From IMG/VR virus record IMGVR_UViG_3300047678_000276, positions 1 to 64,000 of that record: a stretch of 64,000 bases of DNA; one strand, 5' to 3'. This stretch comes from a virus. The number at the start of each line of letters is the position of its first letter. Position 1 is the first letter of the stretch. Under the pieces are notes generated by a model. It saw only the letters and a list, made by a program, of their open reading frames with translations. It was not told the DNA's origin and made no database searches. The position numbers and the translations under genes are program-made. Positions 1,433 through 53,235 of this stretch are shown here, piece by piece.

Positions 1433-1577
1433 TTAAGTTCCTCAAGAATTCTTTCTATTGGTTGGCACTTAAAAATAATAACTCAGATCTTGGGCCAACA
1501 TATAGAAAGTTATTAACAAGAACTTAATAACTTTTTTTCTTTTTTAAGTTTGGCGGAAAAAGTTTCTATAGGTTAGC
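1433..1577. repeat. cluster of variant (gene-less) class I motifs
   Basis: TTAAGTT-N14-TCTAT-WKGTTR-GC at 1433-1466(+), 1494-1527(-), 1544-1577(+). Confidence 0.75.
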
Positions 1578-1598
1578 TAATGAAGGAGTTACAAAATA

Positions 1599-1614
1599 TG
1601 TTCTCCGTGGAACA
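1599..1614. promoter_or_regulatory. parS-like site
   Basis: TGTTCTCCGTGGAACA, 14/16 match to TGTTCCACGTGGAACA. Confidence 0.45.
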
Positions 1615-1621
1615 TATGAAA

Positions 1622-2203
1622 TTATAGATATTTGTTATATCTATTCTCGATTTCATATTCACACTTAGAGATTAGTTTTGTTAGGATTTCTATATTTCCA
1701 GGATCTGTTTCTTTTTTAATTTTGTTTTGCAGCTTCTGGATAGAGAAGTGTACTGAGCATCCTTTTAGTCTATTGTCTTCATTGAACATTGGGAACATAT
1801 TTAAATAATGATAACACAATTTTAAATCTTCTTCATTATTTAAATCAAAAACTTCAACGGGTATTATATGATCTATTCCCCAGATGACACCAAAATTTTC
1901 ACTTAACATGTCTGGTAATATTTGGGCATCTAAATAATTTTTAAAGCCACCTTTGTCAATAGACAAATATTTAGATATTTCTTTTGATGGGCTGTCAGAA
2001 ATATAGAATCTCCTAATGGATATCTGGTATTTCTTCTTTGTTCTGTAGTTGTTTTCTTTTTCTATAATATATTTTGTGTGCATAGACACAAAAATAAATA
2101 GTATGAAATTTTTGCCGCTCGCCGACGAGCTAAAAAAAGGTCCCCGTTTCCAGGAACCTTTTCGGACATTATATCGGATATGTCCGATATCAATATTTGC
2201 CAT
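1622..2203 (-). CDS. HNH-type endonuclease-like protein (start may be 2083)
   Basis: W-x-IDHIIPV...FDL...C-x-HYxN...N-x-x-KG motif. Confidence 0.7.
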   Translation of the reverse strand: MANIDIGHIRYNVRKGSWKRGPFFSSSASGKNFILFIFVSMHTKYIIEKENNYRTKKKYQISIRRFYISDSPSKEISKYLSIDKGGFKNYLDAQILPDMLSENFGVIWGIDHIIPVEVFDLNNEEDLKLCYHYLNMFPMFNEDNRLKGCSVHFSIQKLQNKIKKETDPGNIEILTKLISKCEYEIENRYNKYL

Positions 2204-2444
2204 TGAACTTATCCAAGAATAAGTTTTGATCCTTAGTTAAGGAGTCTCTTAAGCCTACCCAGTCGATTCTATCGCAGTAGGCTTTTAAGTATGCTCTTAA
2301 GTCAGCTACATTATCTATGTAGGTCTTAACAACGAAATCAGAGTCATTAGAATTTGAATCGATATCTTTCTTTATATAGCCTAAGGCTAAGTTGGTTTTA
2401 ATGATCTTGAAATATACATCTCTATTTATTTTTCCGAATAACAT
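2190..2444 (-). CDS. hypothetical protein
   Basis: ORF co-oriented with the gene block. Confidence 0.6.
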   Translation of the reverse strand: MLFGKINRDVYFKIIKTNLALGYIKKDIDSNSNDSDFVVKTYIDNVADLRAYLKAYCDRIDWVGLRDSLTKDQNLFLDKFNGKY

Positions 2445-2493
2445 AGCGTTACCCTCCTTTCTTTTCTTTAATAGAATGGAAAGGTTGGAAAAC

Positions 2494-2772
2494 TTAAAAA
2501 GTATATTTTTCTTTTTTACCTCGAATAATAAATTGTTCTCCTTCTACTCTATTTTTAAGGTAGATTGATTTGCTTAAGGCCCAGTTTCCGCTTAGATCGG
2601 AGTTTGCCAGGAAATACCATAGACCAGTTCTATTGCCGTGGTCATCCCATTGGTTGGGTTTTGATTTAGAATTCGATTTCTTCACCTTCTTTAATTTGGT
2701 CTTTAAATATAACGAATAAACTTGGTTCGGTTTCTGAGGAGACGTAAGCTTTAAATAATCCTTGCCAGACAT
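2494..2772 (-). CDS. small protein, MORN-variant-like, C-terminal EGE motif (true start probably downstream)
   Basis: GNRTGLWYF...VEGEQFII. Confidence 0.55.
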   Translation of the reverse strand: MSGKDYLKLTSPQKPNQVYSLYLKTKLKKVKKSNSKSKPNQWDDHGNRTGLWYFLANSDLSGNWALSKSIYLKNRVEGEQFIIRGKKEKYTF

Positions 2773-3130
2773 TATTTATTAACTGGACTTCGAATAGGAG
2801 TTTAGATTCTGAGTTCTCATCATAGATAAAAGCTCTCTTGAGTCCTGTGACTTGTCCTTTGGAGTTTACTGTAAAGAGTTGAGCTATGTATGATTTGGTT
2901 TTATCTATACAGGAATTATGTTTAAAGCGGACCTGATATTGATCTGGGAATTCAGTATTGGTTGTAACCCAAATTTTCGGTTCAGGAATTCCTTCGGCGT
3001 GTTTAAATAGTTCTATATGGGATCCGTTTGGAAAGAAGTATAATGCCATTGAGTTATTTATAAAAAACCAAAAGCCCCTGTCTTTGAAATTGGGGCCTCT
3101 GGTTTCATAGTTTTTAAAATCAGGCCACAC
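2666..3130 (-). CDS. hypothetical protein, MORN-variant-like, C-terminal EGE motif
   Basis: WQGLFKAY...KEGEEIEF; class II-like motif upstream at 3170-3198. Confidence 0.6.
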   Translation of the reverse strand: MWPDFKNYETRGPNFKDRGFWFFINNSMALYFFPNGSHIELFKHAEGIPEPKIWVTTNTEFPDQYQVRFKHNSCIDKTKSYIAQLFTVNSKGQVTGLKRAFIYDENSESKLLFEVQLINNVWQGLFKAYVSSETEPSLFVIFKDQIKEGEEIEF

Positions 3131-3218
3131 TAAAACGCAAATTTCAAAATAAGACCTGATTCTATATGATTATACGTTTATAATTTCAAAAAGTTATAAG
3201 AAGTTATCAAGAGTATGT

Positions 3219-3380
3219 TTATAACTCTATTTCCAAAGATTCTCCGATTGGAGTACGCCATTCGGCCATTGTCAGTGGGTTGTCTTTATTAAGTATTTCT
3301 ATTTCTAATAAAAGGATACATCTTAGTTCGGCGCATATATTCTTGGTATCTGATAATTCTATGGTTGGTTTATTTAGCAT
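3219..3380 (-). CDS. 53-aa protein with C-terminal GE motif (not in ORF track)
   Basis: Hand translation MLNKPTIE...PIGESLEIEL*. Confidence 0.55.
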   Translation of the reverse strand: MLNKPTIELSDTKNICAELRCILLLEIEILNKDNPLTMAEWRTPIGESLEIEL

Positions 3381-3537
3381 AAGCTATATCGATTGATTCC
3401 CCGTTTTTTTGGAAGTTTGTGCAAGGTCCTGTTATTGTGATCTTGCGGATTTTAAATATTACATTGGTATGTTCGCCGTAGATATTTTTGGTTCCTTTAA
3501 ATATTGGACCTTTAGGAGATAGGGGTTTGTTTTTCAT
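3370..3537 (-). CDS. 55-aa protein with C-terminal GE motif (not in ORF track)
   Basis: Hand translation MKNKPLSPKG...KNGESIDIAYAK*. Confidence 0.55.
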   Translation of the reverse strand: MKNKPLSPKGPIFKGTKNIYGEHTNVIFKIRKITITGPCTNFQKNGESIDIAYAK

Positions 3538-3729
3538 TTAAAAAAATATTTCTAATTCTTCGCCTTCTTGGTGTGTATTTCTTATCGATGGGTGTTGGAA
3601 AGAATAAATTTGTTCGCCGACCAATTTATCTCCTACATGAGGATAATGGAGATTTGTCTGGACCACTCTTAGATCGCCTATTACTTTTGGCCAACCTGGT
3701 TTTAATACTGGTATTGTATATTCGCTCAT
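3538..3729 (-). CDS. small protein, C-terminal EGE motif
   Basis: ends QEGEELEIFF; coupled to neighbours. Confidence 0.65.
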   Translation of the reverse strand: MSEYTIPVLKPGWPKVIGDLRVVQTNLHYPHVGDKLVGEQIYSFQHPSIRNTHQEGEELEIFF

Positions 3730-3935
3730 ATCATTACTTCTAAATGTTCACCTTCGAAGAAGGATCCGCTGATCATTAAACCTTTTGATGATGGTGTTCT
3801 TAAAAGAAGAAATTCATAACCAACGATGGCCCATGAATCAAATCCTGTGTTGGATTCGTGGATATTGTTTTTATATGTTGACAGTTCTCCATTTCTTTTT
3901 GGATACCCTGAAGCTAATCTATAATTTAATCCCAT
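3726..3935 (-). CDS. small protein, C-terminal EGE motif
   Basis: ends FEGEHLEVMI; ATGA overlap. Confidence 0.65.
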   Translation of the reverse strand: MGLNYRLASGYPKRNGELSTYKNNIHESNTGFDSWAIVGYEFLLLRTPSSKGLMISGSFFEGEHLEVMI

Positions 3936-4192
3936 ATTAATACAACTTGTTCTCCTTCTCTGTCATTATCTTTTACGCCGTGGACATTTAGTAACAACCA
4001 GCAATAACAATCTGTAACGTCCCATGTTTCTTCTCTGACCTGGTAAATTGATTTGGAGTCCCTGTAGTTTATGGTTCGTTGATCTATAGAAGCAACATGC
4101 CATACTTCAGGTTGATATTTTGACCAGCTTACATTACATGGGCGATTTGCATCCAGGCCGATTAGGATTAGATATGGGTGTTTCTTTTTCAT
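3926..4192 (-). CDS. small protein, C-terminal EGE motif
   Basis: ends REGEQVVLIWD. Confidence 0.65.
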   Translation of the reverse strand: MKKKHPYLILIGLDANRPCNVSWSKYQPEVWHVASIDQRTINYRDSKSIYQVREETWDVTDCYCWLLLNVHGVKDNDREGEQVVLIWD

Positions 4193-4202
4193 TGAGGGTT
4201 AT

Positions 4203-4232
4203 AAAAAAAGCTGCAGGTTTAAATTGCAGCTT
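4203..4232 (-). terminator. intrinsic terminator
   Basis: AAGCTGCA/TGCAGCTT hairpin followed by T-run on the minus strand. Confidence 0.7.
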
Positions 4233-4332
4233 CTTGTTTTGTTAAACAAACCATAGGAAGAGGAGTTAAAAAAAATATGACTGAACACAATAAAATCTCC
4301 TCTCCTCTACAGTGCGGTTCTCTTTAGAAGAA

Positions 4333-4701
4333 TTAGTCTCTAACTTTTTCTAAAGCTTTAGTGAAGGGGTTGTATTGACGTTGAACAGTACGTAAGTAAT
4401 AACCTTCTTCTAAAGTGATTGGTCCGTGTTCTTCGTGTAGAATAACAGCTTTACCTTTAACTTCGAAAAAGATATTCTCTCTGTCTGTTAGGTCTTTAAT
4501 TTCTGCTGAATCATAACCAGCAACCTGGTGATGTTCGATGATCATAGAATCATCCATTGCAATTACTTCATGGCTATGTCCTGTAACTTCTCCAAGTCCA
4601 AGAGTTAATCTTTTTAACTCTGCTGTTTGCATTCCTGCAACTTGGTCTTTGGATACTCTGAAAATTGTCATGTCTCCGTGGCGTGCGATAATGTTTGTCA
4701 T
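4333..4701 (-). CDS. conserved phage protein (HGD...GEVTGHSH...HEEH...QYNP family)
   Basis: His-rich motifs; paralog at 40739-40999; TATATTTG host-type element upstream (4737-4744). Confidence 0.8.
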   Translation of the reverse strand: MTNIIARHGDMTIFRVSKDQVAGMQTAELKRLTLGLGEVTGHSHEVIAMDDSMIIEHHQVAGYDSAEIKDLTDRENIFFEVKGKAVILHEEHGPITLEEGYYLRTVQRQYNPFTKALEKVRD

Positions 4702-4772
4702 TTTATTTATTGTTTTAAGTTAATTATTGTTGTTTACAAATATAGTGAATTAATTTTATAAAGGCAAATAAA

Positions 4773-5501
4773 TTATGCTTCAGATTGAAGTTTCATATAT
4801 TCTTCTTTAGTTAAGCAATCACCATTGTCTTTAACCATTGTCCAGGCAACTGCACCGATTGCATCTTTACATTGTGGTTCAGTACCATCAACGAAGATGA
4901 AATAGTTCTGGTGAGTAGAAGGACATTGTACCTGAAGAACGAATACATCATTCTCTAATCCAGAGTTCTCGCCGAAATTCTTTTTGTCAATCTTGTGAAG
5001 AATATATTTATCTTCATAAGTTACATCTTTGATCTCGAATAATTCTGAACTTACAGAGGGAGACTTCTCAGTTTTCGCTGAACCAAAGTTCAGGGTATTT
5101 GCGTCTTTAAGGAAAGTTCTTTTTTGAGTTTTGATTATTGTCTGAGTATCAAACACTTCAGACTTCAGGGCTTTAAAAGTTTGTTCAGGGCCCATGATTG
5201 ACATTACTGTCATTAATTGTTGTGCGTTTGAGGAGTATTTTTTAAACGCCTCCTTAGGTTCGATTGCTGGAACTGTGTCCCATAATTTGCGAATTTCTTC
5301 TACAGGTGTAGAGTATTCTGTTTGCAAGGCTAGAGTTTGTTCTACGTGTTTTTCAACGCCGCCGAAATCTGGTTGATGTTTACGAATGGCAACATATTCT
5401 TCGATTGTATCGAATTTAACGCCACGTACATAATAAGACTTCTTAATTGATTTTGGCTTCTGTGCTTCGGTTGCCTCAGGGGCTTTTTCTTTATCGCTCA
5501 T
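4773..5501 (-). CDS. DUF6745-like protein
   Basis: V-x-CPST...YFIFV...AIGAVAWT; paralog at 38878-39555. Confidence 0.65.
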   Translation of the reverse strand: MSDKEKAPEATEAQKPKSIKKSYYVRGVKFDTIEEYVAIRKHQPDFGGVEKHVEQTLALQTEYSTPVEEIRKLWDTVPAIEPKEAFKKYSSNAQQLMTVMSIMGPEQTFKALKSEVFDTQTIIKTQKRTFLKDANTLNFGSAKTEKSPSVSSELFEIKDVTYEDKYILHKIDKKNFGENSGLENDVFVLQVQCPSTHQNYFIFVDGTEPQCKDAIGAVAWTMVKDNGDCLTKEEYMKLQSEA

Positions 5502-5536
5502 ATTATTTTTTTGTTGTTATTGTATTTTGTGATGAA

Positions 5537-5565
5537 TTATACGAATTAGATTTAAAAAAGTTACA
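5537..5565 (-). promoter_or_regulatory. class II (ECF-like) promoter
   Basis: TGTAAC-N16-CGTATAA upstream of 5501. Confidence 0.75.
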
Positions 5566-5566
5566 A

Positions 5567-5761
5567 TCAGTATCTATTTTTTTTTGAGGCCTGGCTAATT
5601 TTAAACTGTTGTTCTTTCTCAGCATGGAATAACCATTGAGCCACAGCCATCTGATCCTGTGGGGAGAGCTGCATAATTGATTCAGCTGCCTGGTTTGTTA
5701 ATTGAGAATTATTGCTCAAAGAGATCATTCTCATTAATATGACTTGTTTATTTATGGCCAT
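5567..5761 (-). CDS. hypothetical protein
   Basis: tightly packed ORF. Confidence 0.65.
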   Translation of the reverse strand: MAINKQVILMRMISLSNNSQLTNQAAESIMQLSPQDQMAVAQWLFHAEKEQQFKISQASKKNRY

Positions 5762-5765
5762 GATC

Positions 5766-5948
5766 TTAATCGTTATCTTTTAATTCGAAGATGGCTCCTT
5801 CACACAATTCTGATAAGGCTATCCAGAATGCTAGACTACGTTCTTTATTACCTGTCAGGATCCTAACTTCGTTTCCTGCGTCTCTTTCTACAAGCAGATC
5901 TAATCCTCCTGCAGAATTTTCCACTGATGTGGGTTGTTTTTTTGCCAT
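5766..5948 (-). CDS. hypothetical protein
   Basis: tightly packed ORF. Confidence 0.65.
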   Translation of the reverse strand: MAKKQPTSVENSAGGLDLLVERDAGNEVRILTGNKERSLAFWIALSELCEGAIFELKDND

Positions 5949-5956
5949 GGTATTTA

Positions 5957-6232
5957 TTATTTAATTTCTTTTTTCAAACAGATCAATACATCACCTACAA
6001 CATAGTCATCAGATGCAATAGCTTTTAATTCTGAAAGAACACTTGTTGCCTCATCATTATTAGGGAGACCCATTAGTTTTCCTTCTTCGTTCATCACCAT
6101 GATCTCACCATCCATGTGACGAAACTCGATGTATCCGCCGACAAAGGATTGTAATTCTTGTAATGTAAAGAACTTTCCGTTTCCTGGAAGGACCTCACTG
6201 GTCTGTCCGTTTGCTTTAATTAGTTGAGCCAT
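5957..6232 (-). CDS. DUF3846-family protein
   Basis: L-x-ELQ-x-x-VGGYIE...NEEGKL-x-GLP-x-N-x-x-AT...VGDV. Confidence 0.8.
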   Translation of the reverse strand: MAQLIKANGQTSEVLPGNGKFFTLQELQSFVGGYIEFRHMDGEIMVMNEEGKLMGLPNNDEATSVLSELKAIASDDYVVGDVLICLKKEIK

Positions 6233-6236
6233 GATT

Positions 6237-6875: not shown

Positions 6876-6876
6876 T

Positions 6877-8297: not shown

Positions 8298-8383
8298 TTT
8301 CTCTTTTTTTATTTGGTTTATATTATGATAGAATTAAAACTCTTGGAAACTTAAAAACTTTTTTTGGAGTTTTATTGCAATAA

Positions 8384-8412
8384 TTATACGGATGAGGAAC
8401 AGAAAAGTTACA
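8384..8412 (-). promoter_or_regulatory. class II (ECF-like) promoter
   Basis: TGTAAC-N16-CGTATAA, in tandem with a class I motif upstream of DUF932. Confidence 0.75.
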
Positions 8413-8446
8413 GCTTCGCTCGGATAAATCCACAACAATAAACTTT

Positions 8447-8480
8447 TTAAGTTTTGATCAGGATGTTTCTATTGGTTGGC
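8447..8480 (+). repeat. inverted variant class I motif
   Basis: TTAAGTT-N14-TCTAT-TGGTTG-GC facing a terminator hairpin at about 8501-8534. Confidence 0.75.
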
Positions 8481-8535
8481 GCTATAGGAAAAATACGGCA
8501 AAAAAAAGAGGAGACTATTTCTAATCTCCTCTTTG

Positions 8536-9665: not shown

Positions 9666-9720
9666 ACATTATACGTTTGGCGTTTAAAAAAGTTACAACT
9701 TCGTTGGGATAAATCCACAA

Positions 9721-10374
9721 TTATTTTTGGCTCTTCTCCTTAATCTTGTCCCTAACAGCTGCAGCCCAAATCCATTCTTCATCCTGTTCAGCCTTAATTC
9801 TCTCAGCCTCAAGTTCTTCTAAGGTCATTGTGTCGAGCATTTCCTGTTTAGTTACTTGTTTTCCTTTAAACTCTTTTTGAGAATTTAACATGCTGGTTAG
9901 GAGTTTATTTCTTAATTCGTGTAATTCATTTAGGTTAGAAAAATCCCCTTTGAACATTGATTCTCCTGTTCCGCCGTTTGTTAGATCTATAATATTGATT
10001 GAACCTTTTATATCTTGTCCTGCTGGACCTGACATATTTCTCAGGAAATCTAGAGGAGAAGCTGGCATTGGTGATTTTGGTTTTAACAGAACAATAACAG
10101 CTTCGCCGATTGTTTGAAGCTTTTGTTTTATTTCTACAGATATAACTATAATGGCCATTAGAAATAATAAAGCTAAGCCCCCAGTAAGTTCCACAGCATC
10201 TATTGCTTGTAAGTCATAAGTGGTGAATAATGATTGGCCTAATTTAATTAATCCTGTTAGTGTAAAACCAACAGCTACAACAATCATTATTAGTATTGCT
10301 ATAGATTTAAAAAATAAGCTTATTTTACTGCCAGCAGTTTCTTTTTTTTCAGGAGCATCAAATTTTATATCCAT
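9721..10374 (-). CDS. membrane protein, 2 TM helices, UVR-like C-terminal helix
   Basis: two hydrophobic segments; C-terminal A-x-x-x-EEW-x-x-AA-x-x-RD; TATCTTTG upstream (10394-10401). Confidence 0.75.
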   Translation of the reverse strand: MDIKFDAPEKKETAGSKISLFFKSIAILIMIVVAVGFTLTGLIKLGQSLFTTYDLQAIDAVELTGGLALLFLMAIIVISVEIKQKLQTIGEAVIVLLKPKSPMPASPLDFLRNMSGPAGQDIKGSINIIDLTNGGTGESMFKGDFSNLNELHELRNKLLTSMLNSQKEFKGKQVTKQEMLDTMTLEELEAERIKAEQDEEWIWAAAVRDKIKEKSQK

Positions 10375-10767: not shown

Positions 10768-11427
10768 TTATGAGTTGAAAGAGAAGTCAGGAGTTTTTCT
10801 CGTAATGAATTCCTGAATTTCTGCCCGTCCACGATTCACGTATGCTTTAATACTTCCTTTTGGTAAGCCCGTCATCTCAACAATTTTATCGTAATCCAAA
10901 TCCTCTAAGTAGCGTAATTTAATTACTTCACGAACAGTTTTGTTTTTGATTGATTCGATTGCGTTAAGAACCATTTCAGCACGCTCTTGTTTTACAATAT
11001 CAGCAAACCCATTGCCCATGTTTGATTTGTCCGCAATTTGGAAACTGAATGTGCTGTCATCTGTATTGTCTCCGTTTTTTACGTTAAGTTCTTCAATACT
11101 TAATACCTCATACTTTTCAGCACGTTTGTAATCAATTAAGCGATTGTTTGCGATTGTATAAATCCAAGTAGACAATGCCGCCTCATTTGGATTGTAAGAT
11201 TCGAAATTAAGATGAATCTTTGTAAAGATATCCATCATTAAATCTTTTGCCACTTCTGTGTTGTAGCGTACACCCATGGACATTTTTTGAAGAACTCCTG
11301 GTTTAAACTTTGCAAATAGCTTTGCAAATGCTGCTTGCTTTTCAGATTCAGAACCTGATTTTATAATTAATGCCAAGACTTTGTCTTGGTCAATTGCTGA
11401 TGTTACTTCTGCTTTTGCGTTTTTCAT
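10768..11427 (-). CDS. ECF-type sigma-70 family RNA polymerase sigma factor
   Basis: region 2 (AKDLMMDIF...STWIYTIANNRLIDYKR) and region 4 HTH (LRYLEDLDYDKIVEMTGLPKGSIKAYVNRGR). Confidence 0.92.
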   Translation of the reverse strand: MKNAKAEVTSAIDQDKVLALIIKSGSESEKQAAFAKLFAKFKPGVLQKMSMGVRYNTEVAKDLMMDIFTKIHLNFESYNPNEAALSTWIYTIANNRLIDYKRAEKYEVLSIEELNVKNGDNTDDSTFSFQIADKSNMGNGFADIVKQERAEMVLNAIESIKNKTVREVIKLRYLEDLDYDKIVEMTGLPKGSIKAYVNRGRAEIQEFITRKTPDFSFNS

Positions 11428-19388: not shown

Positions 19389-19461
19389 ATTAAACCGTAT
19401 TGTTAATGCGCTCTTTTCTTTGATAGAAAGGAAACTGTGTAAAACTTAAAAAACTTTATTT

Positions 19462-19495
19462 TTAAGTTCTGGTCAGAAACTTTCTATTGGTTGGC
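19462..19495 (+). repeat. inverted variant class I motif
   Basis: TTAAGTT-N14-TCTAT-TGGTTG-GC. Confidence 0.78.
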
Positions 19496-19549
19496 ACTTA
19501 CAGATCCAGGAAAGAAATAAAAAAAAGGAGAATGATCTCCTCTTTTAAT

Positions 19550-22974: not shown

Positions 22975-23841
22975 TTATTTTAACCCCTGAAAAAGAAATG
23001 CTATTGTATCTACATTCCAACCATTGCCAAGAGCTTTATATCTTGCCCCGTCGCTTACCATTGCTGTATGTCCTTCAGGAACGCCTTGAAGTCTTTCGTA
23101 TTCAGTTGGAGTTAATTTTCTAACTCTACCATCCTGGATAACTTTCTTTTGTTGATTACCTCCACAAACTGCTGTTAAGGTTTGGCATTTATGTTTTGTT
23201 GAATTAACACGCTTTAAAATATCATGTCCATTGATTGCAAGTGTGGCGCAAACAACTTTATCATCGCCGTGGAATACAAATGGCTCTTTATAGAAATACT
23301 TCTCCGCCACAGTTGGCTCTAATATATCTCCAAGAACCAAGGAGTTTTTTTCTGTTGGTAATTCTAACAATGGAATGTTGGTCCAGTATAATCTAGGACG
23401 ACTTTGTGCCGAAAAGATCTCAGAATTGATTTGTATAGGCTCCACGCCGAGAATATCTGTGATAACTTGTTCCCATTGTTTTTTCATTACAACATTCTCC
23501 AAGAAGAAATACTTTGGCTTCAGTTCTTTTAATAATCGAACATATTCGAAAAATAATTTTGATTTCCCGTCAAACCCAGTATTAGATGAGATGGCAGGTG
23601 AAAAGCTTTGGCAAGGTGAACCGCCGATTAATAGATCAATCTGAGGGAGTCCTTGAGCTGTAACCTTGGTAACATCTCCTAATTGAACTGTTCCAGGAAA
23701 GGTGTTTTGTGTAACTTTAATAGAAGCTTTCTCGATCTCAGAAGCGAAATATTGCTTCACTTGGATTCCTAATCTCTGTAGAGCCAATTGGCCACAGCTA
23801 ATGCCATCGAATAATGATAATACGTTTATTGGTTCTTTCAT
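22975..23841 (-). CDS. C5 cytosine DNA methyltransferase
   Basis: SLFDGI, GGSPCQ, LENV, Q-x-R-x-R, R-x-LT-x-x-E-x-ERLQG, LGNGW. Confidence 0.93.
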   Translation of the reverse strand: MKEPINVLSLFDGISCGQLALQRLGIQVKQYFASEIEKASIKVTQNTFPGTVQLGDVTKVTAQGLPQIDLLIGGSPCQSFSPAISSNTGFDGKSKLFFEYVRLLKELKPKYFFLENVVMKKQWEQVITDILGVEPIQINSEIFSAQSRPRLYWTNIPLLELPTEKNSLVLGDILEPTVAEKYFYKEPFVFHGDDKVVCATLAINGHDILKRVNSTKHKCQTLTAVCGGNQQKKVIQDGRVRKLTPTEYERLQGVPEGHTAMVSDGARYKALGNGWNVDTIAFLFQGLK

Positions 23842-24637: not shown

Positions 24638-24666
24638 TGTAACTTTTATTATCTTTGTACGTATAA
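24638..24666 (+). promoter_or_regulatory. class II promoter of the tRNA operon
   Basis: TGTAAC-N16-CGTATAA; spacer also contains TATCTTTG. Confidence 0.75.
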
Positions 24667-26801: not shown

Positions 26802-26851
26802 ATAAAGATAGAAACAAAAAAGGAGAAACTTAAAAATCTCTCCTTTTAATT

Positions 26852-27778: not shown

Positions 27779-28621
27779 TTAAAACTTTAATAAAGGTATC
27801 AAGTGATTGTTGAAAGAATCATCCGAACTATCAATGGTATGGCACATTCTTTTTAATTCCTGACAAGCCTTCAAAATCTTTCCTGAGCCACCAAAAGGGT
27901 CCAGCACCCAATCTCCAATCTTTGTCCCCTGAGCAACCAAAGTCTTAATCATTTCATAAGGCTTTGAAGTAGGATATTCTCTTAAGTCAGGAGTTAATTT
28001 AAAGTCCATTATCCATTGGTCAAGATTTTCAACCTTGCCTGACTTACTAAATACATAAATATGTTCCTCAGGCATCAAATACTTGCCCATATTCATGCGA
28101 TTACCATTGCTCCATAGCTTTGTGTAGCTACCAATCTTATCGCATTGCTTAAGGCTTGTCTTATTGAATTGAGACATATATTTGTCATGTGCCGACTTGC
28201 TTGTCTTTCCTGAGGTGAACATGAATAATAAAGGACTTACATCAGTTTTTAAAAGTCCTTCAAGTTTTTGAACAAATGTTCCAAATTCCTCAGGAGATAT
28301 TGTGTCTCTAGCAAATAAATTTCTATTGCCACCTTTTTGACCTGCAGCTGAATATGGAATATCCAAGAAGATAAAATCAAATAAGTCCCCTTCTGAACTT
28401 ATCCTATCAATAACTTCAAGGGAGTTTCCATGTTCGATTATTGCTTGCTCCGATACATATAAGCCTTTGCCCACACGTTGAATGCCTTTGCCTAGACTGT
28501 CATATACTCTCCCTCGAACAGTGGTTTTTGCGATTTCAGGAAACTTTGTATAGATTTCCTGCATTGTCATTTTATCATTGCTATTATTTAATAGCGCTAA
28601 GATTTTGCTTTTTAAACTCAT
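27779..28621 (-). CDS. N6-adenine/N4-cytosine DNA methyltransferase (beta class) with N-terminal HTH
   Basis: DIPY catalytic motif, YPTSKP, VLDPFGGSG. Confidence 0.88.
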   Translation of the reverse strand: MSLKSKILALLNNSNDKMTMQEIYTKFPEIAKTTVRGRVYDSLGKGIQRVGKGLYVSEQAIIEHGNSLEVIDRISSEGDLFDFIFLDIPYSAAGQKGGNRNLFARDTISPEEFGTFVQKLEGLLKTDVSPLLFMFTSGKTSKSAHDKYMSQFNKTSLKQCDKIGSYTKLWSNGNRMNMGKYLMPEEHIYVFSKSGKVENLDQWIMDFKLTPDLREYPTSKPYEMIKTLVAQGTKIGDWVLDPFGGSGKILKACQELKRMCHTIDSSDDSFNNHLIPLLKF

Positions 28622-28695
28622 GGTTTGTTTGTTTGTTATATGAATAGAAACAAAAAAGGGAGAACTTAAAAATTCTCCATTTGTTTTTTAACTTT

Positions 28696-29668: not shown

Positions 29669-29787
29669 GATTTAAAAAAACAACCAGTTTGAGTGTGGAG
29701 AGCTATATTATCCCTTTCAATTCCCGATATTGGCTGGTTGTCTATTATATAGAAACAAACATAGGATAAACTTAAAAATAAAAGTTT

Positions 29788-29821
29788 TTAAGTTTTGATC
29801 AGGAAGTTTCTATATGTTGGC
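29788..29821 (+). repeat. inverted variant class I motif
   Basis: TTAAGTT-N14-TCTAT-ATGTTG-GC. Confidence 0.78.
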
Positions 29822-29972
29822 ACAAAATAAAAAAGGTGCCGAATTATAGGAATAAAAAAAGCCCCTGTTTCCAGGAGCTTCCTAATGATAGTCTACGCAT
29901 TTGGCACTAGTTGCATAGTGGCAACCCATTTGCGGACAGTATCGACCCGCCGTTAAACCTTACATCGACTTA

Positions 29973-33477: not shown

Positions 33478-33562
33478 ATATTGTTTTTTTAAGGTTATAC
33501 ATGAATAGAAACAAAAAAGGAGAAACTTAAAATTTCCCCTCTTTTAATTTGTTAAATTTTTA

Positions 33563-35751: not shown

Positions 35752-36015
35752 CTAAAGTTCATCAATATCAACCAACTCTCCATCAACCTCAATGAATTGG
35801 AATTCACTTTCATCCTCCCATGCAGTCCAATAAGAGTCTGTCTCTCCATCTGCATACATTTCCTTCCATTCTTTTTTGGTGTAATGTTTATGGAGACATT
35901 TATCAGAACAATAATACTCCTCTCCTCCGTTTACAACAAAGCCTTCATTCATGCCTTGTTCACATTCATCGCATTTGCGTGCGTATTTCAGATTGGTTAA
36001 ATTTTTCTTGCTCAT
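35752..36015 (-). CDS. small zinc-finger protein (start corrected, predicted leaderless)
   Basis: C-x-x-C...YCS-x-x-C; ATG 6 nt after TCTAT. Confidence 0.78.
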   Translation of the reverse strand: MSKKNLTNLKYARKCDECEQGMNEGFVVNGGEEYYCSDKCLHKHYTKKEWKEMYADGETDSYWTAWEDESEFQFIEVDGELVDIDEL

Positions 36016-36061
36016 GTATGAATAGAACCAAAACAAGGGAGAACTTAAAAAGAAAAAGTTT

Positions 36062-36095
36062 TTAAGTTTGGGCCAGAAACTTTCTATTTGTTGGC
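36062..36095 (+). repeat. inverted variant class I motif
   Basis: TTAAGTT-N14-TCTAT-TTGTTG-GC. Confidence 0.78.
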
Positions 36096-36197
36096 GCTTA
36101 GGATCCAGATCTGAAAAAGGGAGAGAAAACAAAAAACCCCTCCTTGTGAGAGGGGCTTTTCGAACCAAACCAAAACTAAGAGAACCACCACTTAGTG

Positions 36198-39555: not shown

Positions 39556-39623
39556 TTGTTTTGGTTTATAAGTTTATAGAAATAAAAGAGAGAGAAACTT
39601 AAAACTTCTCTCCCTTAAAATGT

Positions 39624-41889: not shown

Positions 41890-42247
41890 TTAATCAACAA
41901 CGCCACCACCATAATACAAATTAAAACTCTTTGCCTTATAGTCATCTGAATTTAGCCAAGCATTATATTTGATTTCCCAATTGTGTTTTTTATCATAGAC
42001 AAATTTATAATACGAGCCATTACAATAGCGTAAAGAATTATTTAGTTTATAGAATATCTCAAACAATTCTATTTCAGTATCAGCTTGAATAAGTTCTTGT
42101 CTTACAATTTCAGAAGTTTGGTCTTGGTAATATCCACCACCCGATAAATACTTTCCGTTCGCATCATATTTTATTGGATATTGCTTTGTTTTGCGTAAGC
42201 AGTCCCAGTAATCTAAAATCGCTTTTAATGGTTTTTTTTGTTGGCAT
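41890..42247 (-). pseudogene. hypothetical gene frameshifted in an A8 run
   Basis: leaderless ATG at 42247 is out of frame with the long ORF by one base in the run at 42232-42239. Confidence 0.55.
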
Positions 42248-42292
42248 ACTATAATAGAAACAAACATTGAGCAAACTTAAAAGAAAAAGTTT

Positions 42293-42326
42293 TTAAGTTC
42301 TGATCTGAAATGTTCTATTGGTTAGC
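42293..42326 (+). repeat. inverted variant class I motif
   Basis: TTAAGTT-N14-TCTAT-TGGTTA-GC. Confidence 0.78.
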
Positions 42327-42432
42327 ACTTAGAACGGATCTCCAGAAAAAAAGAAAGGCGATGAGAATTAACCCACCGCCATTTAAAGACGGGAACCACC
42401 CACGTCTTATTGATAAACCAACCTAGAAAACT

Positions 42433-42609: not shown

Positions 42610-42684
42610 AGTGTTTTGGTTTATTTGGTTTATATGGTTATAGAAATAAAAGGGAGAGAAACTTAAAAATCTCTCCCCAATTCT

Positions 42685-46125: not shown

Positions 46126-46190
46126 ATTTTGGTTTGTTGGTTTCTATTGTAATAGAACGAAATAACACAGAACTTAAAAACAAAAACTTT

Positions 46191-46224
46191 TTAAGTTTGG
46201 GGCCGAAAGTTTCTATTGGTTAGC
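46191..46224 (+). repeat. inverted variant class I motif
   Basis: TTAAGTT-N14-TCTAT-TGGTTA-GC. Confidence 0.78.
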
Positions 46225-46287
46225 GATTTGGGATCACCAGGAAAAAAAAGATCAAAAAAAAGGGGGAAATTAATCCCCTTCAGTTTT

Positions 46288-48506: not shown

Positions 48507-48863
48507 TTAATAACCCGTAACAATTATTCCTTGTCCTGATACTGATTGCTCACGTCCAAACGCATCCACAAAACGAATGAAGTTTGAACTTTGACTCAAA
48601 ATTGAGTCTGTTACAAATGTTTGGTGGTCGCCATAATTTATTACCTCGACTGTGTAAAACTTTTTGCCGTGCTTTTTTGAATTTGCATAAGTTACGCCAT
48701 TTAATGCGAACTTCGCCACAATAGCAATGATTGCTAATGCGAATACTACTTTAAACATTATTCCAAAATTATTCATAGTTTTTTTGTTTTTTTTAAACGC
48801 ATCATCAAACTCCTTATCAAAATTTTCGAATTCTTTATCGAATTTATCCCAGTCTGTGTGCAT
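48507..48863 (-). CDS. single-pass membrane protein
   Basis: one TM helix; stop in next motif. Confidence 0.75.
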   Translation of the reverse strand: MHTDWDKFDKEFENFDKEFDDAFKKNKKTMNNFGIMFKVVFALAIIAIVAKFALNGVTYANSKKHGKKFYTVEVINYGDHQTFVTDSILSQSSNFIRFVDAFGREQSVSGQGIIVTGY

Positions 48864-48918
48864 TTGGTTTAGTTTTGTTGGTTATATGAATAGAAACAAA
48901 TTGATTAAAACTTAAAAA

Positions 48919-49212
48919 TTATTCAGCCATTACATGAGCAAATAAAAACCCCTCTCTTTTCATTGTTCCATACAACTCACTCAATTCTTTTTTTTGCTCT
49001 AAACACTCCTTAATGATATTGTTATTGCTTGTTGCATAACTACGCTCCTCTAATTTTTTCATCATATTCTCAACATTCCATTCCAAGCAAATAAAAACCT
49101 CTCCCATCATAATAGACTTAACATCCATAAATGGTGCATTGTGTTTTACAAATTCAAATGTTGATTTTGAAACACGTACATTTATAAGTTTATATTCGCT
49201 GATTACTTTCAT
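48919..49212 (-). CDS. hypothetical protein
   Basis: own promoter. Confidence 0.72.
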   Translation of the reverse strand: MKVISEYKLINVRVSKSTFEFVKHNAPFMDVKSIMMGEVFICLEWNVENMMKKLEERSYATSNNNIIKECLEQKKELSELYGTMKREGFLFAHVMAE

Positions 49213-49271
49213 GGTTGGTTGGTTTATTGTAATAGAATCAAATCCAGTTAGAACTTAAAAAGTATTTGTTT

Positions 49272-49306
49272 TTAAGTTTGGCCCCCGAAACTTTCTATTG
49301 GTTAGC
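49272..49306 (+). repeat. inverted variant class I motif
   Basis: TTAAGTT-N15-TCTAT-TGGTTA-GC. Confidence 0.78.
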
Positions 49307-49386
49307 ACTTACAGATCCAGGATAAACAAAAGCGAGTCGGAACCACCCGACTCGCTACCTTTAGAAACCAAGAAACCAACTACACT

Positions 49387-49563
49387 TTATTTCCCCTTGC
49401 TCACCACTTTGTCAAGAATTTTGACGTGGTGAAAAATATGATGTTCTGACTTGCCATGCTCCGCCATGTGTTCTTCATAGTGAGTGCTTTCAGAGTCATT
49501 CATATACTCCAATACTTTTTTTAATGCTTTTATTTCTTTTGGTGTTAATGTGATTGTTTTCAT
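49387..49563 (-). CDS. 58-aa His-rich protein (predicted leaderless, not in ORF track)
   Basis: ATG 6 nt after TCTAT. Confidence 0.65.
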   Translation of the reverse strand: MKTITLTPKEIKALKKVLEYMNDSESTHYEEHMAEHGKSEHHIFHHVKILDKVVSKGK

Positions 49564-49592
49564 ATTGGTATAGAAAGATTATTGATTGAAAC

Positions 49593-50030
49593 TTAAAACT
49601 CATCTAACACATTTGTCATTTTAATGATATAATCAGAATGACACTCTGACACTTCAGTTATTGCCTTAATCAGAATACAATAGAACTTTTCATTATAAAA
49701 TTCCATTATGTTTTTTGGAAACTTTGAAGGCATGACATTATTAAGCATATCAGTTAATAACTTATGAGGTTTTCTATATTCGTTCAAATAATCTACTGGA
49801 CCCCAATGATAATTAATAGATATATTATATGGTTGAGTTTCATCAAAAATTATAAATACCCTTGCATCTATTGAAGAATTTTTTGGTACATAAGAAAATA
49901 CTCCATCTCCCTCTCCATACTCCATTGGATAGCCTGGATGAATGTGAGTACCCTCAAGTATATTAAGAGCATTTGAAATGTTCTTAAATAACTCTTTTGT
50001 TCTTGACTTTTCTAGTGTGGTTGTTTTCAT
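49593..50030 (-). CDS. hypothetical protein (predicted leaderless)
   Basis: ATG 6 nt after TCTAT; stop in next motif. Confidence 0.75.
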   Translation of the reverse strand: MKTTTLEKSRTKELFKNISNALNILEGTHIHPGYPMEYGEGDGVFSYVPKNSSIDARVFIIFDETQPYNISINYHWGPVDYLNEYRKPHKLLTDMLNNVMPSKFPKNIMEFYNEKFYCILIKAITEVSECHSDYIIKMTNVLDEF

Positions 50031-50058
50031 GTTTGAATAGAAAGGAAATGATCGAAAC

Positions 50059-50319
50059 TTAAAAATCTTTTGCAGTTACCAATTCCAATGCCATGTACAA
50101 TCCCAATGGCACATTGATTTGCATAACATCAACCGAGTTCATCATTTGGTCTGCAATCTTAACGCTATTGAAAAACTCAAACTTCATCTCCTTAATGTAT
50201 TTCAAACCTGTTTCAGTTACACCTGTTGCTTTTTCTCCTTCATCACCAACAAGCTGACGAATTGTTAAGAAATGGCTTAACTGTTCTTTTTTATGAATGA
50301 ATATCGAAACTGTGATCAT
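50059..50319 (-). CDS. hypothetical protein (predicted leaderless)
   Basis: ATG 6 nt after TCTAT; stop in next motif. Confidence 0.75.
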   Translation of the reverse strand: MITVSIFIHKKEQLSHFLTIRQLVGDEGEKATGVTETGLKYIKEMKFEFFNSVKIADQMMNSVDVMQINVPLGLYMALELVTAKDF

Positions 50320-50334
50320 ATGGTTATAGATAAT

Positions 50335-50613
50335 TTATTTGTTCAAACTTAAAAACTTCTCCTCATTCAATAAGTCAAACTTTCCTGTCCACCCTTTTAT
50401 CTTTGTCTCTCCCTCAGGATTACCAATGGCAATAATATCTTCGTTCTTAATGAACTCCCCAAGCGAATGATGCCCATAAAGAAAATGAACCAAAACTCTG
50501 TCCTCGTATACCTTTGTGATATTGGTAACTTGTATTTCAGTTGGCTCACCTCCGTGGTAATTAAATCCAAATGCGATAAAATCCCCTTCTTTTAAATCTG
50601 AAACTTTTTTCAT
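50335..50613 (-). CDS. hypothetical protein (start corrected)
   Basis: promoter plus AACCAACC leader. Confidence 0.75.
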   Translation of the reverse strand: MKKVSDLKEGDFIAFGFNYHGGEPTEIQVTNITKVYEDRVLVHFLYGHHSLGEFIKNEDIIAIGNPEGETKIKGWTGKFDLLNEEKFLSLNK

Positions 50614-50647
50614 TGTTGGTTGGTTTAAATGAATAGAAACAAAATGA

Positions 50648-50872
50648 TTAGAACTTAAAACTTTCAAAGTCAATTATTGTCCAATTAATTTCCCCGTTCT
50701 CCCAAGCCTCATTACCATCATTCTCAGCGTTCAGTATCTCTCTTGCTGAATCCATTAAGGCAGTCATCAAATCATCCTCAGAGGTGCTATCAGGCACTTC
50801 CACGTGATAAGGGTCAGTCCCTATGTATTCGCCGTTATGAACGAAACGTATATCTACTTTATAAACAATCAT
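50648..50872 (-). CDS. acidic hypothetical protein (start corrected)
   Basis: coupled to upstream small ORF. Confidence 0.68.
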   Translation of the reverse strand: MIVYKVDIRFVHNGEYIGTDPYHVEVPDSTSEDDLMTALMDSAREILNAENDGNEAWENGEINWTIIDFESFKF

Positions 50873-50873
50873 T

Positions 50874-51047
50874 TTATTTTTGTTTAATTGAGAATGGAAA
50901 CGCACCTTTGCCTTTTAAGCAACACACACGAATGAAAGACTTTGCTTTCTTGTCATCTCCACCGATGAACATTGTGTTTGTTCCGCCTGAATAGTTTGCT
51001 AAAACTCCGTAGTTGTTTGCTTGTTGAATGAATGCTAATTTTGACAT
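50874..51047 (-). CDS. 57-aa protein (not in ORF track)
   Basis: MSKLAFIQQANN...; own promoter. Confidence 0.62.
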   Translation of the reverse strand: MSKLAFIQQANNYGVLANYSGGTNTMFIGGDDKKAKSFIRVCCLKGKGAFPFSIKQK

Positions 51048-51108
51048 GGTTTATTTTTTTATGGTTTATAATTTAATAGAATGATTTTTGAGGGGAACTT
51101 AAAAAGAA

Positions 51109-51450
51109 TTATAATGAAGTTAGTTGACATTTTTCCCAATAAGTAGGTATAGACCTTTCTAATGTTTTCAAAAGTTCTTTACAAAATTTATCTCCCTTTT
51201 TTGCTTTAGACAACATAATAAAATGAGAATAGATAGCATTTCTAATAAGAGGGTTTAACTCTTTCATTTGCTCATCAGTTAAATGTTTAACATGAAAGTT
51301 CTCTATATTGTTTCTAACTGACAAAGCCAAACATTTTGCTACAAATTCTAATACGACTAATTCATCATCAGACAAAAGAGATAAATCGCTAAGCTTCTTT
51401 TTTGTTTTTGCTATATCTTTTTTAAGATTTTTTATGAAGTCTTTTGACAT
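51109..51450 (-). CDS. hypothetical protein
   Basis: own promoter; VRN-x-IE-x-FH...MKELN-x-x-IRNAIY...P-x-YWE. Confidence 0.78.
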   Translation of the reverse strand: MSKDFIKNLKKDIAKTKKKLSDLSLLSDDELVVLEFVAKCLALSVRNNIENFHVKHLTDEQMKELNPLIRNAIYSHFIMLSKAKKGDKFCKELLKTLERSIPTYWEKCQLTSL

Positions 51451-51503
51451 GGTTGGTTGGTTGGTTTAAATGAATAGAAAGAAAAATCCAGGAACTTAAA
51501 AAA

Positions 51504-51704
51504 TTATTTCTTAACCTCAACTCCCATAGATTTATAATACTCCTCACTCGTTAATGGCTTGGCATATGCTCTATGTTTGCAGTCAGGACACTCATAAGAA
51601 CCATGAAGTCCAATTCCAGCTTGCCACTCTCCAATGGTTGCATATCTTCCGCATCTGCATCGAGCGTGTGAGCTTGGCATTAAATTGTTGTTGTGTTTAC
51701 TCAT
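51504..51704 (-). CDS. small zinc-ribbon protein
   Basis: C-x-CG...CPDC. Confidence 0.7.
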   Translation of the reverse strand: MSKHNNNLMPSSHARCRCGRYATIGEWQAGIGLHGSYECPDCKHRAYAKPLTSEEYYKSMGVEVKK

Positions 51705-51802
51705 GGTTGGTTTGGTTTATCTATTGTAATAGAATAAAAAAAAGGGAAACTTAAAAAAATTTCCCTCTCCCAGATAAACAAAAATTTATAAACCCCTCTC
51801 CC

Positions 51803-52039
51803 TCAATTCTCAAACATTGGAACCGCCACATCAATAATAACAATATCACAATGATGGTCAACCAAATCATCTTGACGATAATTCACAATATCTCCCTCCA
51901 CAAGCCCATTATCATCCAAAACACTCCCTCCAATAGCAAACTTCTCCCCAGTCATAATATCCTTTAAAATGTGAGTTAAATCACTCCAGAGAAAATTAAT
52001 CTCTCCCTTTTTGGCTCTTAATAGAATTGCTTTTTTCAT
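51803..52039 (-). CDS. hypothetical protein
   Basis: own promoter. Confidence 0.7.
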   Translation of the reverse strand: MKKAILLRAKKGEINFLWSDLTHILKDIMTGEKFAIGGSVLDDNGLVEGDIVNYRQDDLVDHHCDIVIIDVAVPMFEN

Positions 52040-52293
52040 ATTGGTTGGTTTCTATTGTTATAGATAAATAACCCACCAAAACTTAAAAACTCTCCCTTTG
52101 CCATTTGCCCACCTTTTTGGATCTACACAAACTCCCACCAAAAGCGCTAACATATAGAAACAATAAGCCATAAACTTAAAAACTCTCCCCAATATAAAGT
52201 TATAAACATTCTGTCAACAAAAAAACCCCAAGCGATCTGCAAGGGGTTTTTAAAACTTAAAAAGAAAGGGGAATTTTAACTCCCCTCACTTTA

Positions 52294-52872
52294 TTAATCT
52301 TCGATGATGTAATTTGTACCTTTGAAAGTAAGTGCGATAATGTTTGTAAGTGTGATTGTTAAGCGAAAGAAATTATTTGCCTCGTCAACCAAACCACGAC
52401 CCGCTGTCTTTTTTTCAGCGAAGTAAGCAGGTGCAAACAAATTCTTTGCGATTGCATCCTCCTTAGAGATTTTTTTGCCTTCATTGTATAACCATACATT
52501 TACTTTTGCCTTTTTTTCTTGGTCGCATACCAAATACTCAACATTTGCATTTTTGTTCATAAAGGCTAAACAATTTGAGCCTTCAACAAAAGTCTTTCCA
52601 CTCATTTCCTGACTTTCAAAACCTACTTCATCCCCTTGCTTCTCTAAACGTGTATTAACACGATTTTCGTAATTAGAGCCGATTGTGATGTTTCTGAAAG
52701 TTAATTTTTGAAGTAAGCGTTTACCCTTTACTACACGACTGCCATATTCATCAGTGAACGCTACAATGTGAGCAAATGTTGTACCCTTGTGCTTTAATAA
52801 CATTTCACGTAATTCAGCAAGTGTAATTGTTTTTTGATTTTTTCTTTTACTTGTACGATTGATTTTAGCCAT
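52294..52872 (-). CDS. hypothetical protein (first gene of the leftward block)
   Basis: long ORF; tandem class I and class II (52974-53002) promoters. Confidence 0.82.
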   Translation of the reverse strand: MAKINRTSKRKNQKTITLAELREMLLKHKGTTFAHIVAFTDEYGSRVVKGKRLLQKLTFRNITIGSNYENRVNTRLEKQGDEVGFESQEMSGKTFVEGSNCLAFMNKNANVEYLVCDQEKKAKVNVWLYNEGKKISKEDAIAKNLFAPAYFAEKKTAGRGLVDEANNFFRLTITLTNIIALTFKGTNYIIED

Positions 52873-53044
52873 TTTTTCTTTTTTTTAAAGGTTTATATTG
52901 TTTGTTTATCTATTGTAATAGAACGTTATTTGTTTGAAACTTAAAAACTTTTTTGTTAACCTTATTGCAATAATTATACGAATTAGATACAAATAAGTTA
53001 CAAAGTAAATTGTTAAAATTTCAGATTGTCAATTAACGTGTTAT

Positions 53045-53235
53045 CTATTGTAATAGATATAAACCCACCCAAAACTTAAAAACTTTTCTTTTTAAGTTTC
53101 ACCCAAAAACTATCTATATGTTAGCACAAAAAAATAACCACATAATGATCAGCGCCAACATATAGAAACAAAAAACAATAAACTTAAAAACTCCTTTTTT
53201 TTAAGTTCATATAAAGATTATATCTATAACAATAG
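53045..53235. promoter_or_regulatory. divergence point with four class I motifs, two of them convergent variants
   Basis: motifs at about 53052(-), 53092-53125(+ variant), 53154-53187(- variant), 53201-53227(+). Confidence 0.75.

Follow-up and report, generated by a model that had tools for sequence, protein, structure and literature searches.

Gene-less promoters in phages and bacteria

Known elements of this general kind include antisense promoters, promoters in opposed pairs, gene-less promoters at origins, and cassettes that join a promoter to a terminator. In IS10 (pIN and pOUT), phage P22 (Pant and Psar) and phage lambda (oop), opposed promoters produce short antisense RNAs which pair with a specific mRNA leader, are conserved in sequence and come as one pair per element, and in IS10 one of the promoters is controlled by GATC methylation. 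The gene-less phage promoters phiOL, phiOR and phi1.1A/B of T7, and those of oriF and oriG in T4, stand at replication origins and are few per genome. In E. coli, head-on collision of polymerases at a hairpin element between convergent units is described as blocking read-through (Ju et al. 2019, via Wang et al., 10.1101/2022.10.23.513370; review PMC13500782). Hyperplastic regions of T4-type phages carry PeSL cassettes, in which sense promoters of sigma-70 type are combined with a terminator stem-loop (Arbiol et al. 2010, PMC2839356), and ONT-cappable-seq of Pseudomonas phages has revealed antisense starts, bidirectional terminators and intergenic small RNAs, for which silencing of other temporal classes was proposed (PMC9163698). 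Here we describe a further kind of gene-less promoter in IMG/VR virus record IMGVR_UViG_3300047678_000276, a linear contig of 76,322 bp (33% G+C, ~41% complete according to CheckV) whose first 64 kb are referred to as the window. The element is a variant of the main promoter of this phage that occurs 13 times in the window, has its own start module, lies almost always near a GATC and keeps a fixed geometry to terminators and partner promoters. In the literature we found no account of a dedicated promoter subclass that recurs throughout a phage clade and combines a separate start module with phased pairing and a GATC rule.

The variant units share something with each of the described systems. 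Like the pairs of IS10, P22 and lambda, they include promoters placed face-to-face a few tens of bases apart, and IS10 is also linked to GATC; however, the transcribed sequence of the phage units varies, and their GATC has no fixed place in the promoter. With the origin promoters of T7 and T4 they have in common that they are phage-specific, would act for the DNA and not for a gene, and have A/T-rich sequence downstream, whereas those origin promoters are not known to have the pairing with a terminator, the phased divergent promoter or the distinct start module. Collision termination in E. coli also involves a promoter directed at the 3' end of a neighbouring unit across a hairpin. It differs in that the opposing unit in the phage is a gene-less promoter of a dedicated sequence variant with many copies per genome, in that the phage has canonical sense terminators and units that include a GATC, and in that transcription from the variant side is here predicted. 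The resemblance to PeSL cassettes lies in the arrays of small genes, the strong repeated promoter joined to a terminator stem-loop and the variable early region, but a gene-less counter-oriented partner, a changed start module and a link to GATC are not described for PeSL. The non-coding antisense and intergenic transcription of the Pseudomonas phages resembles the predicted output of the units, although a conserved dedicated promoter subclass was not reported there (PMC9163698).

A variant of the main promoter with its own start module

Between about 1.6 and 53 kb of the window the genes are almost all small and encoded on the minus strand, forming an array in which one promoter recurs. TTTTTAAGTT is present in 84 copies in the window against 1.7 expected, and the contig has about 100 copies of TTAAGTT-N15/16-CTAT, 85 of which precede genes on the minus strand. 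Past CTAT the sequence of these normal copies is W-M-N-W-A-T-A-T-R-A-A, nearly devoid of G, which roughly agrees with the A/C-rich hexamer ascribed to gene-driving copies in an initial annotation of this DNA. The seventh base past CTAT is A in 82 of 88 copies. An ATG stands exactly at this position in 27 promoters, and all 27 open a reading frame (ORF) of at least 27 codons, 26 of them of at least 49 codons. Since all of these ATGs are in frame, they are real start codons of leaderless mRNAs, which places the transcription start at the seventh base after CTAT. TCTAT accordingly spans -11 to -7, and the TTAAGTT box approximately -33 to -27. The 27 promoters of leaderless genes are located at ~20-50 kb; other genes have A/C-rich leaders (AACCAACC) and no Shine-Dalgarno sequence.

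Several other readings of the main promoter were considered. The likeness of CTATAGG to T7/SP6 promoters was set aside because the leaderless ATGs put the start 7 nt past CTAT; no match to a T7-like polymerase was obtained in the 76 kb, but the control search matched nothing anywhere, making this result uninformative. Sigma-70 type promoters are not enriched relative to shuffled sequences, and promoter subtypes differing by block were rejected, every block having mixed subtypes. A literature search for the -35 motif found nothing relevant.

The variant units are full copies of the main promoter (TTTTTAAGTT, a spacer of 15-16 nt and a -10-like TCTAT) in which the conserved module WKGTTRGC stands in place of the start region, approximately ATATAAAC. 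The variant motif TCTATWKGTTRGC has 13 exact matches in the window (shuffle mean 0.56, maximum 3), starting at 1454, 1565, 8468, 19483, 29809, 36083, 42314, 46212, 49294 and 53113 on the plus strand and at 1494, 52146 and 53154 on the minus strand. All 13 sites of the initial annotation were recovered in this way, its coordinates (1433, 1544, 8447 and so on) being the -35 box starts of the same sites. Each has (T/A)TAAGTT 15-16 nt upstream of CTAT (spacer of 15 nt in 12 sites and 16 nt in one), followed by the start region W-K-G-T-T-R-G-C with G at the start position, and the A/T-rich, G-free region of the normal copies is absent. Transcription is predicted to begin at the G of GC or at the preceding purine, giving RNAs that would begin with (R)GC. 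As originally proposed, no credible ORF belongs to any of the 13 sites, including 0-35 nt past the start, the sole exceptions being genes already served by a promoter of their own and, after 1544, a frame of 9 codons preceded by a Shine-Dalgarno sequence. A sigma-54 reading of TTGGCAC was rejected by eye, GATC taking the place of the -12 TTGC in some window units only and the relatives having no match.

Conservation in related loci

Pattern scans of viral and metagenome contigs yielded 64 related loci with at least three copies of the main promoter each, in which 121 non-identical variant units, forming 77 clusters, were identified. The family consensus of the variant is CTATAGGTTGGC. The GTTRGC extension singled out in the initial annotation is conserved in alignable relatives with 67-72% nucleotide identity in their genes as well as across the 64 loci, and 124 of the 186 occurrences of the KGTTRGC heptamer in 318 kb fall within variant units, the heptamer being rare elsewhere. 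A -35 box is found at 121 of 122 CTATWKGTTRGC sites in the related loci, a count affected by the retrieval of these loci with a pattern that includes the box. Spacer length was rejected as a marker of the class, being 15 nt in the window and mostly 16 nt in the relatives. Past the start, unit sequences are not conserved among relatives.

The spacing of the units differs within the family. In the window the gaps between units measure 11.0, 10.3, 6.3, 6.2, 3.9, 3.1 and 3.8 kb, which bears out the described shrinkage from about 10 kb to 3-4 kb for this genome. In the related locus L099, however, a unit follows almost every gene (12 units in 9.7 kb), and the gradient from 10 to 3 kb is therefore peculiar to this genome and not a family feature.

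Two arrangements were noted in the relatives. One is a repeated intergenic element consisting of CCCCAGATCAATTG.., a variant promoter, GGCGGCGGCGCA..CTCTCCCCTGGCCGATC and a normal promoter, all on one strand and with GATC on both sides of the variant; it is located at 3590-3760 in L099 and 2100-2260 in L109, with similar elements in L040, L072, L077, L083 and L132. The other is seen in L140 (2.5 kb), where three convergent variant pairs lie close by, each enclosing GATC-N6-GATC (about 10 bp from G to G) and a GGCCGCCGCC stretch.

Geometry of the units

Among the units of the family, 75 of 118 (64%) face a canonical intrinsic terminator on the opposite strand which ends 21-46 nt from the variant start, whereas only 21 of 118 (18%) have a terminator in their own direction. 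The terminator-like hairpin described in the initial annotation is indeed present in front of the internal window units, about 26-40 nt from the predicted start in 7 of 7, but it is a canonical minus-strand terminator: with terminators mostly on the opposite strand and rarely on the unit's own, the hairpin belongs to the previous unit and not to the variant. These facing sense-side terminators have a hairpin followed by 6-9 U, unlike cases of termination without a canonical intrinsic terminator. On their other side, 85 of 121 units (70%) stand back-to-back with a sense promoter, and in 81 of these 85 pairs the gap between the -35 boxes is 11-13, 21-23 or 32-33 bp, that is, it changes in steps of one helical turn. 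In the window, 8 of the 13 units are paired in this way with a normal promoter, the starts being 78-80 bp apart in all eight. Back-to-back pairing with a normal promoter was thus rightly noted for most internal copies, with the exception of 8447, whose partner is a promoter of the type GTAAC-N16-CGTATAAT. Convergent variant pairs are formed by 18 units, with starts 30-31, 48-52 or 60-63 nt apart. Both pairs proposed for the ends of the region (1433/1527 and 53092/53187) were confirmed, their starts lying 30-31 nt from each other, and the left-end pair is kept in the relative L062 with the same 30-31 nt gap and a changed intervening sequence. Finally, 18 units (about 15%) lie in tandem upstream of a normal promoter; most are members of one repeated family in relatives, and one is unit 52179 of the window.

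At the left end of the array, unit 1433-1466 (+; start 1465) converges with unit 1494-1527 (-; start 1495), 30 nt separating the two starts, with a GATC between them. The upstream neighbour of the first is a GTAAC-N16-CGTATAAT promoter at 1368-1396 (-), and the second is back-to-back with another variant, 1544-1577 (+; start 1576), the only unit without a GATC, after which come the Shine-Dalgarno sequence with its 9-codon frame and a GTTCTCCGTGGAACAT repeat. Unit 8447-8480 (+; start 8479), which has a GATC in its spacer and is partnered by the GTAAC-type promoter at 8383-8411 (-), faces the intrinsic terminator of a minus-strand unit at 8505-8534 (-), a 13-bp stem with T8 that follows tRNA-Met. 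The remaining internal units all combine a back-to-back normal promoter on the minus strand with a facing intrinsic terminator of a minus-strand unit. Unit 19462-19495 (+; start 19494; GATC at +10 and in the hairpin loop) is paired with the promoter at 19416-19449 (-), 78 bp from start to start, and faces the terminator at 19521-19546 (-). For unit 29788-29821 (+; start 29820; GATC in the spacer) the partner is at 29742-29775 (-), again at 78 bp, and the terminator at 29856-29883 (-) is without a U-tract in the variant direction. Two GATC (GGATCCAGATCT) follow directly downstream of unit 36062-36095 (+; start 36094), which has its partner at 36015-36048 (-), at 79 bp, and the terminator at 36130-36162 (-). 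Unit 42293-42326 (+; start 42325; GATC in the spacer and downstream) lies between the promoter at 42247-42280 (-), at 78 bp, and the terminator at 42357-42380 (-). Unit 46191-46224 (+; start 46223), with the promoter at 46145-46177 (-), also at 78 bp, and the terminator at 46263-46278 (-), has two GATC, of which the one in an A-run is kept in 4/4 orthologous units while the other moves. The last internal unit, 49272-49306 (+; start 49305; GATC downstream), has the spacer of 16 nt, a partner at 49225-49258 (-), 80 bp away, and a terminator at 49331-49356 (-) without a U-tract in the variant direction. Unit 52146-52179 (-; start 52147; GATC downstream) is the tandem case, on the same strand as, and upstream of, the normal promoter at 52087. 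Where the two gene arms diverge, unit 53092-53125 (+; start 53124) converges with unit 53154-53187 (-; start 53155), with 31 nt and a GATC between the starts; the first is back-to-back with the normal promoter at 53046-53079 (-), 78 bp from start to start, and the second with that at 53201-53234 (+), at 79 bp, which drives the gene at 53256-53552.

This geometry is best accommodated if the units are boundary promoters which load RNA polymerase head-on against incoming transcription, an account that we favour tentatively, at somewhat less than an even chance. The units are placed at the beginning of a transcription unit, just beyond the previous terminator, most of them aiming back at that terminator and standing back-to-back with the first sense promoter at a fixed helical phase. 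A polymerase loaded at the variant would travel a few tens of bases until it meets the hairpin, an oncoming polymerase or a mirrored copy of the promoter, and such a head-on barrier may ensure that transcription of the upstream unit ends there and that read-through does not reach the next promoter, with short or ragged non-coding by-products as the only RNA. Of the functions listed in the initial annotation, that of an insulator or polymerase trap gives the best geometric fit, considering the position at the back of a one-way terminator, the conserved pairs at 30-31 nt and the helical phasing, although what this comparison of sequences indicates is predicted firing and predicted collisions.

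The same annotation had suggested tiny RNAs that start with GC. The start itself is supported by the sequence, and the units could be genes for small trans-acting RNAs given the layout of a promoter followed by a hairpin within 25-50 nt and the GCACTTA/GCGCTTA..GATCCAGG shared by five window units. An RNA gene is nevertheless highly improbable: the transcribed part, GATC aside, is unconserved between relatives, the hairpin is the terminator of the opposite strand, 82% of the units are without a terminator of their own, and Rfam has no match. While the sequence of the RNA varies, the promoter, start module, GATC and distances are conserved, and this points to a role that would lie in the site or in the act of transcription rather than in the RNA.

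Association with GATC

The observation that nearly all units have a GATC close by was confirmed by the enrichment statistics. In the window a GATC is found in 12 of 13 units as opposed to 9 of 89 normal promoters (Fisher p = 2.6e-9), corresponding to 14.5 per kb in window units against 2.0 per kb for the contig. Between 17 and 53.2 kb the array contains half the GATC expected from a Markov model (41 observed, 83 expected), and 12 of these 41 fall in the 768 bp of variant units; the depletion in the array is put at two- to three-fold. The same holds in the relatives, where 99 of 121 units (82%; 62 of 77 clusters) and 83 of 504 normal promoters (16%) have a GATC (odds ratio 23). Counted over 242 kb, units contain 11.3 GATC per kb and the remaining sequence 1.85, and in L099 (9.7 kb) 14 of 17 GATC are within units. 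The place of the GATC is variable, either in the spacer or at +4 to +53 (median +21), without a fixed place in the -35 or -10 box, and orthologous units retain a GATC but shift its position. Conserved GATC between the start and the barrier might subject the boundary promoters to control by methylation or by a protein. A C5-cytosine DNA methylase and an N6/N4 DNA methylase, both of unassigned specificity, are encoded inside the array at 22975-23841 (-) and 27779-28621 (-) and may bear on the GATC question.

So strong an enrichment would also fit a timed antisense switch, in which a separate promoter class, controlled through GATC methylation or by a factor, produces long antisense transcripts that silence upstream early genes by interference and double-stranded RNA. 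The 82% of units that lack a canonical terminator in their own direction would let such transcripts pass, as would the hairpins faced by at least 4 of 7 window units, which have little or no U-tract on the variant's side; the start module is as strictly conserved as a regulator site would be, and antisense silencing has been proposed for phages LUZ7 and LIT1 (PMC9163698). We nonetheless consider this switch unlikely, in view of the variable position of GATC, which is unlike that in known methylation-controlled promoters, the tandem units and units of convergent pairs that are antisense to no gene, and the failure to find a Dam-type methylase in the 76 kb (about 41% of the genome). The MutH family had no match in these 76 kb either.

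Clustered GATC is likewise compatible with transcription-primed replication origins, related to the primer-RNA sites of the initial annotation, where a short transcript would act as R-loop or primer by an A/T tract and GATC would couple firing to methylation. Promoter-based origins are known from T7 (phi1.1A/B, phiOL) and T4, the units are gene-less promoters followed by a run of A8-9, and in many relatives the transcript starts are G-rich, which favours R-loops; the window units, however, are not G-rich. One pair lies near 53 kb at the switch in gene orientation and the GC-skew minimum, but a skew minimum at the point where the coding strand changes is not independent evidence for an origin. 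With 13 units in 53 kb, and 12 in 9.7 kb in L099, the copy number is too high, far above known cases, and origins are a very doubtful explanation. Signals for staged DNA entry, another early suggestion, received no direct support: no entry-stop signal was found, and the depletion of GATC in the array is the only, indirect, hint.

Points against a boundary function, and the start module

Several observations weigh against the units being boundary promoters. The sense terminators that they face already look strong, leaving the need for a helper not obvious, and many terminators of the same array are without a variant unit. Because of the tandem units, and because convergent pairs could read genes on the far side, the product is not always antisense. 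The proposed punctuation of gene-block boundaries is peculiar to this genome and not shared by the family: in L099 a unit stands after nearly every gene, and some units run in tandem with genes and not antisense to them. Within the window, too, not every unit end carries a variant. Neither the strict conservation of the start module nor the GATC requirement is explained by a boundary function.

A start module of this kind might instead mark an RNA-less docking site, where the holoenzyme or a specificity factor is recruited and opening or escape is blocked, resulting in a static roadblock or a reservoir for the neighbouring promoter; alternatively, WKGTTRGC could be the binding site of a regulator. 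Normal and possible later promoters share a ATATAAAC-like start region that is missing in the variants, the variants have a higher G+C share between -6 and +2, the heptamer is largely confined to the units, as described above, and the helical phasing with the partner promoter would suit a stereospecific contact. The start region is only moderately G+C-rich, however, a purine start after a pyrimidine lies at the expected distance, meaning that the sequence does not forbid initiation, and no candidate regulator has been identified. We regard docking without RNA as quite unlikely, and boundary promoters that load a counter-oriented polymerase remain the preferred account. An extension of it, which is speculative and has a low probability, is that a widespread clade of large uncultured phages has a dedicated promoter class with the sole task of placing polymerase at unit boundaries, wired to GATC sites that have been removed from the rest of the early region; how strongly early units are insulated or silenced would then vary with DNA methylation or replication, making the units a replication-sensing switch that consists of promoters alone.

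Other promoters and features of the contig

GTAAC-N16-CGTATAAT is a third promoter-like motif, present in 13 copies and resembling the consensus of SigW-type extracytoplasmic function (ECF) sigma factors. In the window its copies are at 570, 1396, 5564, 6524, 8411, 9567, 9696, 11477, 24316 and 53001 (-) and at 24639 (+), and beyond the window in the contig at 64328 and 69702 (-). One copy overlaps a main-type promoter ahead of the phage's own ECF-type sigma factor gene at 10768-11427 (-; TIGR02937, 66.5 bits; best named matches SigW), which lies within the small-gene array and outside the units; the position of this copy suggests putative autoregulation. Another copy precedes a tRNA cluster on the plus strand. 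The architecture of the main promoter is also similar to the ECF (group 4) type, with an AAC-like -35 core, a spacer of about 16 nt and a short -10, but since the GTAAC motif fits the SigW-type consensus better, the ECF sigma factor is at most a candidate reader of the main promoter. Directly upstream of two GTAAC-type promoters, at 8412-8436 and 9697-9721 (-), there is a shared TTGTGGATTTATCC element with the palindrome GGATTTATCC; it is a likely regulator site. Outside the array, at 54.2-64 kb of the window and in L001 (contig 60-76 kb), several genes are preceded by sequences like TATTTAT(A/C)T(A/G)TAAAC, for example at 55220, 65851, 68455 and 69165; these may represent promoters of a later class, with the same ATAAAC start region as those of the array.

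Within the array, some terminator hairpins on the minus strand have the -35 box of the next promoter as their loop and its spacer as their U-tract, for example at 26818-26847, 28659-28678 and 33512-33546, with further such cassettes at 39586-39616, 42653-42678 and 51738-51771 (-). These compact terminator-promoter cassettes recall the PeSL cassettes of T4-type phages. At the array end, positions 560-1640 form a repeat-rich stretch of about 1 kb without ORF, containing three copies of GTTCTCCGTGGAACAT, two of ACCATCGAAATTT..TTGGTTGG and GTGAATTTTA-like iterons, which could be an origin or a regulatory region. A GTTCCACGTGGAAC palindrome related to these repeats follows a variant unit in L058.

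Known RNA families (Rfam) in the window are limited to tRNAs, and nothing was found in eight related loci. CCGG and CGCG are absent from the whole 76-kb contig, against Markov expectations of about 20 and 35, and GGCC is halved within the array; the missing CCGG and CGCG together with the reduced GGCC look like restriction-site avoidance. The 64-76 kb part of the contig carries genes for NadE-like, IMPDH-like, adenylate kinase and peptide deformylase proteins. The nearest match of the NadE-like gene is in a 642-kb uncultured phage, while searches with the adenylate kinase gave distant matches only, of mixed taxonomy. In the phage record collection there was no nucleotide match and no close relative, and a 518-aa protein was without a match. 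The contig appears to stem from a moss metagenome; the only sequencing runs listed as containing it in full are two DNA runs of that origin, no RNA run being listed, and the clade occurs at moss and lake sites.

Significance

Only scattered single examples are known of promoters that work for the DNA or its traffic and not for a gene, whereas here a phage family keeps a recognisable subclass of its own promoter, probably for such a role. Three measurable features define this subclass, namely conservation of the start module, proximity to a GATC and a fixed geometry to the terminator and the partner promoter. These sequence rules allow the units, and with them their early regions, to be annotated in metagenomic phage contigs. 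If the sites fire, they would be a natural, compact insulator part and a clean system for programmed polymerase collisions, and through the GATC rule phage transcription would be tied in a new way to sites of DNA methylation.

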